IMG/VR virus record: IMGVR_UViG_3300034683_000092
Location: 32,584-96,583 of that record
Origin: a virus
Reading direction: 5' to 3' (one strand)
Length of the DNA: 64,000 nt
The position numbers and the translations under genes are program-made. The notes under the pieces are model-generated. The model had not been told where the DNA came from, did no database searches, and saw only the letters and a list, made by a program, of their open reading frames with translations. Of this stretch, positions 31,174 to 64,000 are shown piece by piece; the stretch's first letter is position 1; each line of letters starts with the position of its first letter.

Positions 31174-34100
31174 CTATCGGAATAATCCAGTTAAATCAGA
31201 CAATTGAGTATCGTCATCAATAAATCCAGACTTTTCTAATTTAGATGCAAAGTCATAATAGCTTGACATATATGGTATTGATTTTCTAAACTCAACCCAT
31301 CCTCTTAAATCACCTCTTTGAGTGTATGCATCCTGCCCATTGTTGATCGCTATATCAACACCAGCAACAAACATTTTTGATGCAGCCTCTAACGATTTAT
31401 AGGCTCTCGTAACAGCTACTGGTTCTAAGAACGACTTACCTGTATTGAGAATATCAACTGGGTTGTATTGCTGAGAAACGTTCATCATCATATATGTATA
31501 CCACCATTTTTTCATGGTATCATCATCATCGTTATCTTTGAACATAAATCCATAGATAGCATAAGCCATGAAGAAAGACATAGTAGTATTCATAAAATGA
31601 ACCAAGCTAACTTTTTCCTCATCAGAAAGAGACTCCCATCTTTTAATCATTGGTCTATATCCTTCAGTTGAAAACATGGCTATTGATTTTGCTGTTCCTC
31701 CAAAGAAGTCTAGCATTAATGGGAATAGTATTCTTAATTTTCCATTAACACCTTTTCTAGGAGTCCACTTTAAAATAGGAGTGCCATCTTTCTCTAAGCC
31801 AACTTGCTCGTATTCACCAAGAGTTATATCGTTATGTTTTGATTGAATCAAATTCATTATGATTCTAGGGAAATACTTCTTTAAAGATATTGCAAATTGT
31901 CCAAAAGCAGTCATCTCCATACCAGACATTTCTTCATTCTTATAACCACCTTGAGTTCTTTCATGTATACGTCTGATACGACCTATCTCCATTGGAGTTA
32001 AGTCTTTCACTTCTTCTCTATTACCATTAGAATCATAGGTAACACCTCTAAGCGGGCCGTCATAAACAAGCTGTCCATCAACTATCTTATATGCATCCCA
32101 CATTGATCTCCCATCTTCTAACTTCATGTTTTTAAGAACACTAGCAACGGTCGTCATGCTAATAGACATCTCTCCAAATGAATGCAATCCCATCATAAAT
32201 TCTCCAGCAGAAGTTCTTTCTCTTAGCGCCATTGTTTGACGATCTCTCCAACCTCTTACTTCTCCATCATGCATACCAAGTAAATCCATGAATAGCCATA
32301 ATTTCTCGTTCTCTAGCTTTCCACCAGACATTACTCTACCAGACATAGCTGTAAACTCTTTCCATGCAGCAAGGACTGTAGAAGCTTTATAGTCAGTCAT
32401 TTTAACGCCTAAAAACTTAGTAGCCCAAGAATAACTTAAGGCGCTTAAGAAAGTCGTCAAATGCCCTACTATAGCATTACCAGCAGCACCAAATGGTCTA
32501 GCCCACATAATAGTAGCCGAACTCCATCTGTTTAGCTTACGCATCGTCTGTTCTGGAGATAGAAATATTTGCTGTCCAGTAACAGGGTGAGTTCCTAGTG
32601 CTATCTTTGTTTCACCCATTATACCTTGAGACTTATTCACACGTCTTATGACTCTATTTGAGAATCTCTCTATTAATGAAATATCGCTTTTAAACTTACC
32701 ATGCAAAGAATGTATCCCACTTTCTCCAAGAGCTAACATCTCTTGTCTTACAGCTTGTGCGTAAGAATAAACATCGTCCATCTCTCGCTTATACTCTGAC
32801 CATTCAACGAATTGTCCTAGAGAATCAGCTAGATTCATAGAGTAAAACCTCTTACTATTAATAGATGTATTGCCTAAATATTTCAATGGTATTGCAATAT
32901 CGTCGTTGTCATATTCATCAAATAAGTTTTCATCATGAAAAGACATGCTTTCTAGTATTTCTCTCTTTATATTTGTAGCAGAGAAACGCCCAACCAATGA
33001 ATTTCCATTACCATACTTTTTATGTAAGTCAATATTTCTAGCCCTTGTTTTAGGGAAGAATCCTTTATAATACACAAACTTCTCACTTGTAGATAATGCA
33101 TTTCTGACCTCTAAATTACTATATGCCTTACCATTTGGTGTAGTAACAGCAACCTGATTAGCCAAAGCGTCATTGCCTATAAAATATGAATCCATAATAG
33201 ACACATATTCTTTTATAAAAGCTTTCTGTACATCACTCAATGAATTCCACTCGTCATCTGTTTCTAATATAAGCCTTTGAACTAGACCAATATTTGGTAT
33301 TTCTGCCTCTTTAAGAAGTTGTTCATACATCCCAGTATAATCTGCTTCAACCATTTCTGATATAGACCTCTTACTTATGTATTCTTTTCTAAGGTCATCA
33401 GTTAGCTTCTTTATATTTGAAAGCTTTTTCATCGTAGCTTTTCTAAAGGTCTCTTTAGCTATAGTGTACATCTTTACGATGTTTTGTATAACTGGATTCT
33501 TAGAGTCTTTTATATTACCTAAGAAAGATGAAACAATACCAGTGTCTTCTGATGCCGCAATATTTAATGCTACGCCGTCAAAGTCTGTATCAAACTTGTG
33601 TTTCTCCCTTAATAGTTCTGATATTAAAGACCTAACACGCATTAATTCAGAAGGATTATTAGCAACCTCTGGAAGTTTTAGCCGTTGTTCTAATATACTA
33701 ATAGATCTGTTTATTTCCTTTAGTGTTCTACGCCCTGATTTACCAGACAGAATAGCATCTTCGGCCTTATAGTTACTTGAATGAGAATAGTGCCCAGTAT
33801 TAAATACATCCTTTGATTTCTCAATCATTTTAGCATGTACGTCAAGTGGCAATCCAAGTTCTTCAAGAACCTCCTTGTCTTTTAAAAGCTGTTCTACCAT
33901 AGGGATGAAAGCTTCTACTTCAACAGATGTATTAGGATTATTTACAACAGCAGAATACTCATTAGCTGCATATGCCACTTTTAAATCCCTAAAACGAATT
34001 GTTGGGTTCTCAAGTTTCATTATAACAGCATAAAAAGCCAACTGCAACTTAGCTTTATCTAAAGGAGAGTTTGTAATAGTTTTTATCTGATCCCCATGAT

Positions 34101-59886: not shown

Positions 59887-60567
59887 TTATTGTTTTTTAT
59901 TTAAATCGTCTGATGCATTATTAACCTCGTCGCTGTTTAACCTGGAACTTCTTAAAAGCCTTTCTACAATGACTTCTATTAGAGTTGATTGTAACGAGTC
60001 TTCTAATGGAAATTCAATGTCTAGCATGTCAAATCCATTCTTATCTTCATTAAAGAAGAAAACCTCTCGTGGGTTATCAAATACAGCAGTTAGATTTACT
60101 GATTTTAAATACTGTATTGCATTTCCATTAGATTTTGCTATAAGCTTATTATTTTTATCTAAAGAGAAATAGATCATTTTGTTTAGAAATTGATTGTTTC
60201 CAACAAATCTAATTCTTTCGTATGGAACAAAAGACATGTGTATTCCATTTAAGTCATTACCAACTGAGCTAATAGATACGCTTGAGTCTAAAGCTCCAAT
60301 GCTTACCATTTGAGGAATATAAGAAGTGCTTATAAGCTCATTTGTAGACAGTCCTAAATCATCGTTTTTCTGCTCAAATGAGACTTTGACTGTTTGAGTA
60401 TTAGAACTAGGTATCCGTTTTCTTACATCTGAATACTTTTGTTTTAATAACATAGATCTATATTTATCGATTAAATAAGATATATGTGCATCGTTATATA
60501 GCGAATCGTCAGATGTCGCTCTTATTTGGTCTAGTATTATATATACTAATTCTCTGTATGTACTCAT
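59887..60567 (-). CDS. Tail ring protein (true start MSTYRELV at 60567)
   Basis: TYRELVYxILD, YRxMLLKQxY, AVFDNP, FPLE. The track start at 60582 lies inside the IscB element. Confidence 0.72.
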   Translation of the reverse strand: MSTYRELVYIILDQIRATSDDSLYNDAHISYLIDKYRSMLLKQKYSDVRKRIPSSNTQTVKVSFEQKNDDLGLSTNELISTSYIPQMVSIGALDSSVSISSVGNDLNGIHMSFVPYERIRFVGNNQFLNKMIYFSLDKNNKLIAKSNGNAIQYLKSVNLTAVFDNPREVFFFNEDKNGFDMLDIEFPLEDSLQSTLIEVIVERLLRSSRLNSDEVNNASDDLNKKQ

Positions 60568-61850
60568 ATTAAATTTCGGCAAGGAAACCCATGTATTGAT
60601 GCATGGGAGGAATTGCCACTATTCCTTCTTTCTATTAATAATGTTCTTCTTATTTCTACTAACCGTAATGTCTTGCAGTTGACACTGCCTTTGTCGACTT
60701 TGGTTCCGTTCAACCTGCGAATATCGAAATAACCACTCTTTCTTCTTCCGAACACATAAAACAGTTCTTTCTGATATTCCACTAAGTCAAACAGTCTAAA
60801 TCCTTTTACCGTGAAAGGAGCCTGATTGAGCTTCTTCTTGCCGCCTTTCAGAATATTAGCCTTATGTAACTGTCTGTTCTGACATCTTACTTTCCTTTGA
60901 TAGAAGTAATATCCAAGAGGCTTAGCTTGCGGGTTTCCGCTTATACAGCGAGCATCAACATAGTGCTCCTTTGGGAGCCCATTAACAATACGGGTATTCT
61001 TAGTGATATATCCGAATGTCATAGATACATTGGAATATATTTGCTTCAGTCTTTCAAGAAAAGCCCATCGCATAACGCCCATAAATGAGGCGTCTCGGAA
61101 TGAAGCCCCACGTTTCACCTTTAGCTCAAACTTACCAGAATGATAAGCCTTGTGACAGGTCTCGCACAACGTGATAAGGTTGCTTGGGCTATTGCCTCCA
61201 GTCTTTCTCGACTCAAGGTGGTGTACATTGAGAATCTTATTTCCGCTCTTCCCATGACAATGCTGGCATGTATGCCTGTCACGCCAAAGAACGTATTCAC
61301 GGATATTCCAAAATCCCATCTGCTCTCCATTCTGATAATCTTCGCCATCAACATTTGGATTCTTTATCTTCTGAATGTCAAAAGATGCAGTTTCGACGAC
61401 AATTTTTGATATAGGAAGTATTTTGTAAGCGTCCATCACAACCGTCAAGTGAGTCTGTATTTTGTTCTCGATAGACGGAGCCATCCATCCTTTATGCTTT
61501 GACGATACCCGATTATTAAATCGAGCCTTACGATAACGAAGCCTGCTTCTACGTGTTCTTCTCTGTTCTCTACGTGTAGAGATCTTATCCACAATGTCGT
61601 TCCTAAGCTCAACGTTTGCAGCATACAAATCTTTTTTATCTGTCGTAGCGCATACGCCTATGAATTTACTTCCTGCGTCTATTCCCAACGTTATTGGCTG
61701 CGTGATTTCAGTTGTATCATAGTCCAATTGAATTGTAAACGGAATATGTCGCACGACATGAGCAAGACCACTTTTCAACAGTCGTCTTACTTTTCCATGT
61801 CTATCTGTAGGCATCAATGCCTTCCCCTGTCTGTTTGTTACGTAAACCAT
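60564..61850 (-). CDS. iscB: IscB RNA-guided endonuclease (PLMP, split RuvC, bridge helix, HNH)
   Basis: ALMP, GIDAG (RuvC-I), RREQRRTRRSRLRYRKARF (RRXRR), VVE (RuvC-II), CQHC..HH..GGN...NL.TLCETCH (HNH), HYVDA (RuvC-III). Confidence 0.95.
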   Translation of the reverse strand: MVYVTNRQGKALMPTDRHGKVRRLLKSGLAHVVRHIPFTIQLDYDTTEITQPITLGIDAGSKFIGVCATTDKKDLYAANVELRNDIVDKISTRREQRRTRRSRLRYRKARFNNRVSSKHKGWMAPSIENKIQTHLTVVMDAYKILPISKIVVETASFDIQKIKNPNVDGEDYQNGEQMGFWNIREYVLWRDRHTCQHCHGKSGNKILNVHHLESRKTGGNSPSNLITLCETCHKAYHSGKFELKVKRGASFRDASFMGVMRWAFLERLKQIYSNVSMTFGYITKNTRIVNGLPKEHYVDARCISGNPQAKPLGYYFYQRKVRCQNRQLHKANILKGGKKKLNQAPFTVKGFRLFDLVEYQKELFYVFGRRKSGYFDIRRLNGTKVDKGSVNCKTLRLVEIRRTLLIERRNSGNSSHASIHGFPCRNLI

Positions 61851-62100
61851 TATTGTTAATTTAAAATACTGTAAGTCGGATTTCTCCGTTAAATGCTCAT
61901 CGCCAATGTTATAGGGAGGTTTTGTGTGCCAGCAACACTGTTCCTACCTCACAGAACTGTTTAATCACTGACCGCAGAGCAAGGAACTTGAACAAACATT
62001 CCTTTGTGCCTATATATTCTACCCTAACGTAGCACCGAGGTGCTTAGGCTAATCAGTCAAGGCTTCTACAAGCCTGCCCCTTCAGGGGTGGGTAACTGAC
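60568..62100 (-). mobile_element. Non-autonomous IS200/IS605-family IscB element (omega-RNA + iscB, no tnpA)
   Basis: Begins GTCAGTTACCCACCCCTGAAGGGG; ends with hairpin GGCAATTCCTCCCATG...CATGGGTTTCCTTGCC (60578-60617) just before ATGA; visibly more GC-rich than the flanks. Confidence 0.88.
61865..62100 (-). ncRNA. omega-RNA (HEARO-type) scaffold
   Basis: GTCAGT...ACTGAT terminal stem, CCCCTGAAGGGG and GGCTTGTAGAAGCC hairpins, AGCCTAAG, CTACGTT, CTCTGCG, AACATTGGCGATG blocks directly upstream of iscB; 3' end approximate. Confidence 0.88.
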
Positions 62101-62119
62101 ATTTATTATTATAATTTTG

Positions 62120-62151
62120 CAAAATTAATAAAACAATAACCAATTATCAAC
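62120..62151 (-). promoter_or_regulatory. Putative Bacteroidota sigma-A promoter (-7 TAATTTTG; weak -33 GTTG)
   Basis: Exact TAnnTTTG on the - strand at 62127-62120, part of a 16-bp palindrome; GTTG 20 nt upstream. Confidence 0.55.
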
Positions 62152-62164
62152 ATGATACAAAAAA

Positions 62165-62229
62165 AAATCACACTATATGATAAGATTTAAAACGCTATTT
62201 AACGCTAAATTTACTATATAGTGTGATTT
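62165..62229. repeat. 14-bp inverted repeat with a 37-nt spacer
   Basis: AAATCACACTATAT ... ATATAGTGTGATTT; spacer has AACGCTA twice. Confidence 0.75.
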
Positions 62230-62232
62230 ATA

Positions 62233-62547
62233 TTATACCGTTTTCTTTTTAATAAAATAATTTTTATAAGAAAACTTAATTCTTTCATTCAGGTAATTGT
62301 CATTTGACTGATTCAAATATGCCTCACGTTCAAAAGGATTATCCTTGTATCCGTACAGAGCATAATAATAGATATATATTATATAAAACAATACATAATA
62401 TAATTCTTTCATTTGTGCCGTATGAATTAATTCGTGATTTATTATTTTCTTTGATATTTTAACTCCTTTTCTAGCAAATAAAACACCAAATAAGTTTATT
62501 GCAGAGAATCCTTTGAATGGAATAATGTTATTATATACTATCTTCAT
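62233..62547 (-). CDS. Small HExxH metallopeptidase-like protein (DUF4157-like)
   Basis: INHELIHTAQ...NPFEREAY with an intervening hydrophobic segment. Confidence 0.72.
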   Translation of the reverse strand: MKIVYNNIIPFKGFSAINLFGVLFARKGVKISKKIINHELIHTAQMKELYYVLFYIIYIYYYALYGYKDNPFEREAYLNQSNDNYLNERIKFSYKNYFIKKKTV

Positions 62548-63074: not shown

Positions 63075-64000
63075 TTAAATTGTTCCCTCAAAATAATAAC
63101 CTCTATCCTGGAGTATAACCACATCTGTAAGAGGTAACTCAGATCGATCTACTTTTTCCAAGACGTTAATCAAATATTGATAGCTACCACAGAGGAATAA
63201 TTTTTCACCTCTGTATAGTATCTGCATATCTACACGCATTCGATCATTCTTGATAGATGGTAATATGCGATAATCAAGAATCTCAATTTTTTCGCCTACA
63301 ACTTTATCAATCTTGACCTTACGGCCGTCAAATGGCCGCTCTATTTTTATCCCTAAATTAGCTAAACTACCCATGTGATTATTATCATTTGTAATTGTTT
63401 TATCAATTAAATTACGGCTGTTACAATGCTTCATAATGCCCATATAGCTAGCCATTGAGGTTGGACTATGACGTTTCTTTATCATAGACTTTTTAATACT
63501 TTTCCTCACTTTTGTGTAGCCTGGAAAAAACACATAACCTCCCATATCAATGCCATCTTTAACACGACCTATTCTTCGGTTTTCCTTTAGTTCTAGTTTC
63601 AGATTGTACCATAAAAAGTTTCCAATGCCCCACATTATACGATGTAAGTCCTGTTTTGAATCTGATAATATTAGCATATCATCGGCATATCTAAAGTAAT
63701 GTTTAACTCTTAATTCTTGCTTAATATATCTATCAAGCGAACGAAGTATAACATGACTAAGCAACTGAGAGTCTGGACTACCGATTAACAATCCCTTATG
63801 ACTATAATTCATTTCGTCAAGTAACCAAAGCAACTCTTTATCCTTGCAATCACGCCTGTAACATAATGCCAATACATCATTATCAACTGATTCATAGAAC
63901 TTTTTAATATCTAATTTCAAATAATAAACCGACTCTGGTAATAAGATAGCTCTTTTTATCTTTTTGTTCATATTGTATACTTTGTTTCGGCTTGTAATGC
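63075..64000 (-). CDS. DGR-type reverse transcriptase, 5'-truncated by the window edge, with fused C-terminal domain
   Basis: YYLKLDIKKFYxSVD, GLLIGSPDSQ (IGxxxSQ, DGR-like), YFRYADD, GIDMGGY; frame is open beyond 63971. Confidence 0.88.
   Translation of the reverse strand, partial: ITSRNKVYNMNKKIKRAILLPESVYYLKLDIKKFYESVDNDVLALCYRRDCKDKELLWLLDEMNYSHKGLLIGSPDSQLLSHVILRSLDRYIKQELRVKHYFRYADDMLILSDSKQDLHRIMWGIGNFLWYNLKLELKENRRIGRVKDGIDMGGYVFFPGYTKVRKSIKKSMIKKRHSPTSMASYMGIMKHCNSRNLIDKTITNDNNHMGSLANLGIKIERPFDGRKVKIDKVVGEKIEILDYRILPSIKNDRMRVDMQILYRGEKLFLCGSYQYLINVLEKVDRSELPLTDVVILQDRGYYFEGTI

Follow-up and report, generated by a model that had tools for sequence, protein, structure and literature searches.

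The crAss-like gut phage listed in IMG/VR as IMGVR_UViG_3300034683_000092 (96.6 kb, estimated completeness 95%) carries, directly in front of its gene for tail ring protein 2, a transposon that encodes the nuclease IscB together with the scaffold of its guide RNA (omegaRNA). The stretch analysed here, denoted as the window, comprises 64,000 nucleotides of this record (positions 32,584 to 96,583), and all coordinates refer to the window. The element spans 1533 bp on the minus strand (62100..60568) and is a non-autonomous ISC transposon, i.e. an IscB-encoding transposon of the IS200/IS605 type, located at its known ATGA target; it is not a new system. As judged from sequence comparison, the locus is probably best explained by an ISC insertion at the ring protein 2 ATGA, with a guide that would derive from the upstream leader and with RNA-guided homing or retention of the element. 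The element's identity and boundaries, its empty allele, the intact nuclease motifs, purifying selection and the ATGA rule are directly established.

Empty allele and identity of the element

A scan of JGI metagenome contigs yielded two loci, L002 and L003, with a 97% identical Ring-2. Both represent the empty site (...ttgcaaaattataataataaat|atgagtacatac...), in which the leader ending in ATAATAATAAAT is joined straight to ATGAGTACA. Alignment of L002 with the window lacking positions 60568-62100 is gapless with 96.9% identity over the whole 2185 nt, and the insertion of 1533 bp is therefore seamless and devoid of a target duplication. An earlier note on this DNA had predicted that removal of 60568-62100 would restore leader plus ring gene and had suggested looking for the empty allele in related phages; the junction in L002 and L003, with flanks ~97% identical, is exactly the predicted one, and the upstream element end adjoins an A/T-rich leader as proposed. 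Flank and element both end in AAT, which leaves a formal uncertainty of 3 nt in the cut point, and the boundary was set at 62100/60568 because the omegaRNA scaffold begins with GTCA.

On the minus strand the locus is arranged in the order 104-aa gene, stem-loop followed by U9, A/T-rich leader, omegaRNA, iscB, ring protein 2, a 158-aa open reading frame (ORF), ring protein 1 and a 1511-aa structural protein, with the following features:

62547..62233, minus strand: 104-aa gene upstream of the terminator-like stem-loop
62159..62229, minus strand: strong stem-loop plus U9 tail, resembling a terminator of the preceding transcription unit (folding as RNA at -22.7 kcal/mol, z = -5.6, equalled by 0 of 200 shuffles)
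up to 62101, minus strand: A/T-rich leader of 58 nt ending in GCAAAATTATAATAATAAAT (62120-62101), adjoining the 5' end of the element
62120..62127, minus strand: TAATTTTG, candidate promoter box of the ring operon and now putatively also of the omegaRNA, read from the sequence and fitting the Bacteroidota -7 box (TAnnTTTG)
62101..62116, minus strand: predicted guide segment AATTATAATAATAAAT, the same sequence as the empty-allele protospacer; it adjoins the scaffold start on the 5' side and is identical in L002 and L003
61888..62100, minus strand: omegaRNA scaffold (HEARO, RF02033), its first base being the 5' terminus GTCA of the element (132.6 bits, E 1.3e-28, model 1-211)
60564..61850, minus strand: iscB ORF of 428 aa, the last ~15 codons being a frame-shifted read through the terminal hairpin, with the stop TGA in the flank
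60578..60617, minus strand: 3' subterminal imperfect hairpin GGCAA..CCCATG / CATGGG..TTGCC, likely a Y1-transposase recognition structure (DNA fold and covariation)
60568..60577, minus strand: 10-nt terminal spacer GAAATTTAAT of the element, corresponding to a hairpin-ATGA gap of 10-12 nt in relatives, its end being fixed by the empty alleles
60564..60567, minus strand: ATGA, transposon target and predicted target-adjacent motif (TAM), which also provides the start codon for ring protein 2 and, with its TGA, the stop of the present iscB copy
59887..60567, minus strand: gene of the crAss-like tail ring protein 2 (CrAss_Ring_2), first of the virion block (PF25702 3.5e-36, PF24228 4.1e-53, phrog_28748)

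Homologues of ring protein 2 begin at the same methionine as the 60567 start. The stem-loop at 62159..62229 was overlooked by the sigma-70/terminator scan because its stem is GC-poor.

The IscB protein matches the Pfam families RRXRR (PF14239, 1.3e-59 over residues 2-175) and HNH (PF01844, 1e-7) as well as the solved structures 11hr, 7utn and 7xht (E 2.6e-50 to 1.7e-47). In the alignment to 11hr_A it retains the N-terminal PLMP-type segment, the RuvC-I aspartate (LGIDaG), the RuvC-II glutamate (vvEtasf), the HNH residues H209/H210 (nvHHle) and the RuvC-III segment eHyvDA, so that the RuvC and HNH motifs are intact, as had been noticed earlier. Residues D58, H209 and H210 coincide with those mutated in the inactive dGstIscB (bioRxiv 10.1101/2023.03.14.532601). 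Upstream of iscB and on the same strand, the HEARO match is full-length, begins exactly at 62100, exceeds the cut-off of 83 bits by far and is the only copy in the 96.6-kb genome.

Compared to its closest relatives L004 and L055, which occupy other insertion sites and are 90-91% identical at the amino acid level, IscB displays a ratio of nonsynonymous to synonymous substitution rates (dN/dS) of 0.15-0.18. The omegaRNA scaffold is 93-97% identical to theirs, while dS of the coding sequence is ~0.3, and consequently both the IscB protein and the omegaRNA have been under selection. A search of the 96.6-kb genome for the Y1 transposase (tnpA, PF01797) gave no match at E <= 1, in agreement with the absence of tnpA stated in the earlier note. 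The element is therefore non-autonomous and lacks the tnpA of the autonomous IS605/ISC2Y class. About 98.5% of iscB loci are non-autonomous (bioRxiv 10.1101/2023.03.14.532601).

Target motif, gene starts and the end of iscB

Kapitonov, Makarova and Koonin (2016, PMC4810608) defined ISC transposons by 5'-GT(CA) termini, subterminal hairpins for the Y1 transposase and an N|ATGA target that is not duplicated upon insertion. ISC1-1_MA, ISC2-1_HM and ISC2-1_MS from that study resemble the present element in being non-autonomous, ~1.3-1.7 kb long and IscB-only, with a 5'-GT(CA) end, subterminal imperfect hairpins and a position 5' of ATGA without duplication. Unlike these chromosomal elements of cyanobacteria and proteobacteria, the present copy resides in a crAss-like gut phage and its lineage is nearly phage-only.

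The 5' end of the present element is GTCA, with a CCCC/GGGG stem located 12 nt from the end. For the 3' hairpin (60617..60578), 23 aligned element ends of phage and cellular origin reveal covariation, with 79.6% of cells paired vs 57% in shuffles and 26-43% in slid controls, and with double-sided changes in 71 cells vs 23.5 expected. These subterminal hairpins are predicted, with good likelihood, to be the recognition structures of the Y1 transposase. The distance from hairpin to target is a steady 10-12 nt in relatives, and in the same 23 ends the ATG is invariant and the following A present in at least 90%.

Relatives were surveyed in 80 IMG/VR loci (51-91% identity) and 11 loci from 185,579 species genomes. 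They reduce to 32 distinct 3' flanks, corresponding to 31 sites because L006 and L007 share one. ATGA is found in 29 of the 32 flanks, and ATGC, ATGG and ATAA once each; position 5 is usually A in relatives and G in the window (ATGAGT). GstIscB shares one recognition motif with its TnpA: TTCAT, located 5' of the left end, or, in the iscB orientation, ATGAA 3' of the target (Meers 2023, bioRxiv 10.1101/2023.03.14.532601). Literature and survey thus agree on ATGA as the predicted TAM, in line with the ATGA-like TAM assumed in the earlier note.

At six loci (L016, L022, L030, L013, L077 and L084) the target motif after the element is ATAA or ATTA, and the ATG opens no gene there; the TAM seems free to decay where it is not a start codon. 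In L006 (4275-4300) the element end is separated from the ATGAAAACACTGG site, the one used in L007/L008, by 12 extra nucleotides, ATGAAACAGACA, resulting in two tandem ATGA motifs, which may represent a carried-over flank or alternative cleavage.

In 20 of the 32 flanks an ORF of 50 aa or longer starts from the junction ATG, vs 25% of 2158 control ATGA sites in the same loci (binomial p = 8e-6). Landing at a start codon is therefore a common outcome in the IscB family and no peculiarity of this phage; a survey for enrichment at ATGA starts had been proposed in the earlier note. A stricter measure, which requires that no earlier ATG precedes the junction ATG within its ORF once the empty site is reconstructed, gives 6/20 (p = 0.017), but this measure is distrusted because upstream genes often overlap the frame. 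The N-termini at junction ATGs include, by our own reading of the translations, those of a Dam-like methylase, a PncB-like protein and a Ddl-like protein, and several insertion sites are intergenic spacers of 2-10 nt or ATGA stop/start overlaps between genes. The simplest cause of start-codon landing is a fixed ATGA target combined with the survival solely of insertions that do not break genes. Start codons are not mentioned in Kapitonov et al. 2016 (PMC4810608).

In the present copy the iscB TGA (60566-60564) overlaps the ATG of ring protein 2 (60567-60565), exactly where the earlier note had located it. Relatives that have the hairpin almost always terminate iscB with a TAA in the hairpin loop (consensus TAAAG), ~35 nt before the host ATG, and the relatives align to IscB residues 1-413 only. 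The hairpin of the window has a 5' arm 2 nt shorter than that of its closest relatives and a loop without TAA; because of the shorter arm and the missing loop stop, the ORF runs on through the hairpin in a different frame, gaining 15-16 codons before its first in-frame stop, the target TGA. An IscB subclass of 414 aa reaches the stop/start overlap by another route, namely a ~45-nt deletion which removes the hairpin. The stop-in-TAM overlap as an adaptive design of the family was considered and rejected, as close relatives stop in the hairpin loop. That one tetranucleotide serves as TAM, iscB stop and start codon holds for the present copy, but the stop part is accidental. In the present copy, translation of iscB and of the ring gene may be coupled, but such coupling is not a conserved design.

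Coupling of this kind, together with the location of the element between a likely promoter and the first virion gene, would fit a regulatory co-option in which the main effect of the element, through its omegaRNA, its hairpin or bound IscB, is on when or how strongly the ring operon is expressed, similar to the nuclease-dead, TnpB-derived TldR repressors. This is very improbable, since the catalytic residues, whose loss marks the TldR-like class of guide-RNA regulators, are intact, since element-free siblings with ~97% identical flanks evidently express the operon without the element, and since the overlap is not conserved in relatives.

Unlikely as well is an inert passenger, i.e. a harmless insertion that is now tolerated while IscB and omegaRNA are inactive in this phage. 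The frame change through the hairpin alters the C-terminus of IscB, the genome is without tnpA, and relatives are visibly decaying, with premature stops in L014, L080, L052 and L066. Nevertheless, the altered tail falls beyond the part aligned to relatives and solved structures, the ORF is full-length with every catalytic residue present, and both the omegaRNA score and the dN/dS given above speak against inactivity.

Predicted guide, self-sparing and homing

By virtue of the terminator-like hairpin upstream, the guide would have to be transcribed from the 58-nt leader. Its length was assumed to be 16 nt, as in OgeuIscB. The resulting AATTATAATAATAAAT is followed by an intact ATGA in L002 and L003, whereas in the occupied allele it is followed by GTCA. 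In the phage's own genome the sole near-match to guide plus TAM is this occupied site, and with GTCA in place of ATGA the own allele would be spared. The box TAATTTTG at 62127-62120, which fits the Bacteroidota -7 consensus, would as a purely hypothetical promoter place the RNA start ~15 nt upstream of the scaffold. Scanning for sigma-70 promoters was uninformative (6 found vs 8.6 expected).

A scenario that covers transcription start, cleavage, homing and translational coupling, and in which cleavage and homing, like phage competition, are extrapolated from known IscB biology, would run as follows. A Y1 transposase acting in trans would have inserted the element, without target duplication, immediately 5' of the ATGA that forms the start of ring protein 2, which would be one of few harmless spots for 1.5 kb in a gene-dense phage genome. 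The element would be transcribed from the ring-gene promoter region, ~16 nt of leader becoming the guide fused to the omegaRNA scaffold, and ring protein 2 would be translated from the same long transcript, where the overlapping iscB stop may aid initiation in the present copy. The IscB-omegaRNA complex is predicted to cut leader-ATGA alleles, be it the excised copy or a co-infecting element-free sibling, and to spare the own allele, which has GTCA where the TAM would be. Recombinational repair from the occupied allele would then restore or spread the element (restorative or non-restorative homing). Cutting of excised or element-free alleles and copying back by recombination are assumed by analogy with tested IscB and TnpB elements; for this IscB, RNA-guided cleavage of target plus TAM is a comparative prediction from ATGA at 29/32 flanks and GTCA at the self site. 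Phage-to-phage (non-restorative) homing by OMEGA systems (short for obligate mobile element-guided activity) is still a theoretical extension of the transposon-retention model according to a 2026 review (PMC13565253). The locus offers a ready case for it, as both alleles are known to the base, guide and TAM are readable, and self and non-self differ by GTCA vs ATGA.

Several observations weigh against this explanation. The phage is without tnpA, so that a transposase would have to come from elsewhere. The TAnnTTTG motif is expected by chance ~1 per 1.2 kb per strand and occurs 54 times on this strand of the window, and because it is so common the TAATTTTG promoter is a hypothesis only. The predicted guide is 100% A/T and may form a weak R-loop. 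The leader protospacer is not protected by a start codon; the earlier suggestion that the target is hard to mutate is consequently right for the TAM, which the start codon shields, but not for the 16-nt all-A/T protospacer, which can mutate freely. A signature of co-conversion or of a recent event was not significant, as the 195-nt mismatch-free stretch at the window-L002 junction is equalled elsewhere in the same alignment. The alleles of this site comprise one occupied genome and two empty contigs, from which neither the direction of gain or loss nor co-conversion can be read.

Among characterized systems, GstIscB of Geobacillus stearothermophilus (bioRxiv 10.1101/2023.03.14.532601) is similar in that the omegaRNA is bounded by the right end, the guide is located outside that end and depends on transcription from outside the element, the TAM is ATGAA on the iscB strand, D58/H209/H210 are shared, and tnpA is lacking in cis. 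Donor-joint cleavage promotes retention of GstIscB, and by analogy the same is predicted for the present element. In contrast to GstIscB, the present flank is ATGAGT, with G instead of A at position 5, and the setting is a lytic-type phage genome, in which the relevant empty allele is a co-infecting sibling rather than a sister chromosome. OgeuIscB-omegaRNA (PDB codes 7UTN, 7XHT and the related 11HR) is homologous in the PLMP, RuvC, bridge-helix and HNH parts, with the E values given above, but it is 496 aa long, has the TAM NWRRNA (as quoted in PMC12660989), and its C-terminal TAM-reading part aligns poorly. With homing endonucleases of phages, both free-standing and intron-borne (T4 Seg/Mob; PhiPA3 gp210), the element would share the cutting of a nuclease-free sibling in mixed infection followed by recombinational copying-in. 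It differs from them in that recognition would employ a flank-derived RNA guide and a 4-5 nt TAM instead of protein-DNA contacts, and in that transposon ends are retained.

The IscB lineage in gut phages

Relatives at a level of at least 74% identity are found almost exclusively in viral contigs. In the 185,579 species genomes the best match, at 78% identity, comes from a 39-kb contig in an Odoribacter metagenome-assembled genome, the others being 54-66% identical. Among 23 sampled IscB-bearing records the crAss Ring-2 occurs only in phages of ~155 kb and is lacking in the complete IscB genomes of 92-99 kb; therefore several gut phage families host the lineage. According to the survey, the whole IscB lineage is resident in such families, mostly at gene starts. 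For annotation this means that genes labelled 'HNH endonuclease' which precede structural genes of crAss-like phages can turn out to be IscB transposons.

A Y1 transposase is encoded in 2 of the 23 records, with full-length PF01797 in L095 (G023:C1:22474-22830, E 2.7e-41) and L096 (G006:C1:13248-13604, E 5.8e-39), and a transposase source thus exists in the phage pool. One of the two records, a complete phage genome of 92 kb, has two IscB copies (L034, L035), the Y1 gene being located apart from the IscB loci.

The hairpin-less 414-aa subclass is found in gut phages of ~92-99 kb at no fewer than 10 distinct sites, with a median dN/dS of 0.105. In this subclass the stop falls on the target TGA because the 3' hairpin has been removed by the ~45-nt deletion. 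This purifying selection on hairpin-less copies argues for a putative nuclease role in phages that is independent of transposition. Members are L005, L007, L010, L012, L015-L017, L021-L056 and others; the deletion is located ~1240-1245 nt after the iscB start (GCAAG|GTAAATTT|ATGA). L028, which shares its site with the hairpin-less L050, has a shortened hairpin and is an intermediate form.

It is possible, albeit tentative, that the lineage as a whole is a phage-resident, largely transposase-independent RNA-guided homing endonuclease, acting as a gene drive among co-infecting gut phages. It would be located at start codons so that selection on the host gene protects the ATGA TAM and would borrow the host-gene promoter for its guide, many copies being hairpin-less and IscB nevertheless under strong purifying selection.

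It is rather doubtful that IscB goes beyond such selfish spread and serves as a domesticated weapon, kept mainly for cutting element-free competitors at the start of the ring gene. The overwhelmingly phage-resident distribution (more than 80 IMG/VR loci vs 11 in 185,579 species genomes) and the dN/dS of ~0.1 across at least 10 sites in the hairpin-less subclass, which is probably no longer mobile by TnpA, would be consistent with this, and PMC11620839 provides a precedent with an intron endonuclease in phage competition. Selfish homing alone, however, accounts for the same data; moreover, the target is set by the landing place and not chosen, and the A/T leader protospacer is unconstrained and mutable by competitors.

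The same downstream gene is found behind the element in many phages, yet the 5' flanks, i.e. the would-be guides, differ widely, five being unrelated for one gene. The element therefore lies at a boundary of mosaicism or recombination, as has been reported for phage homing endonuclease genes. The 3' flank ATGAAATGTAATTTTACC is shared by L017, L032, L042, L053 and L081, and ATGAAAACACTGG by L007, L012, L018 and L056.

Decaying iscB copies were observed as well: L014 and L080 have a stop at codon 214 and L052 at codon 24, and in L066 the frame is broken at the start, while intact copies are present at the same sites elsewhere. The 5' flank of L066 contains a tRNA-like 3' end (ggttcgaatcc...) ~30-70 nt upstream of the element, and this copy, from a crAss-like phage of 155 kb, seems to follow directly on a tRNA gene.

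As for the host of the present element, IMG/VR and INPHARED contain no close relatives of the phage, including its ring-2 gene; the nearest crAss-like phages in INPHARED are too distant for a comparison of the site because their Ring 2 is only 33-40% identical. In the protein database the Ring-2 cluster at >=90% identity has 399 members. Most of these are located on contigs of 1-3 kb, and L003 starts just 24 nt upstream of the insertion point, which could reflect assembly breaks at a polymorphic insertion.

Diversity-generating retroelements are known from crAss-like phages. An ORF at 63075-63971 (minus strand), which runs off the end of the window, has a match to the reverse transcriptase family phrog_1423 (4.1e-49) and may be part of such a retroelement.

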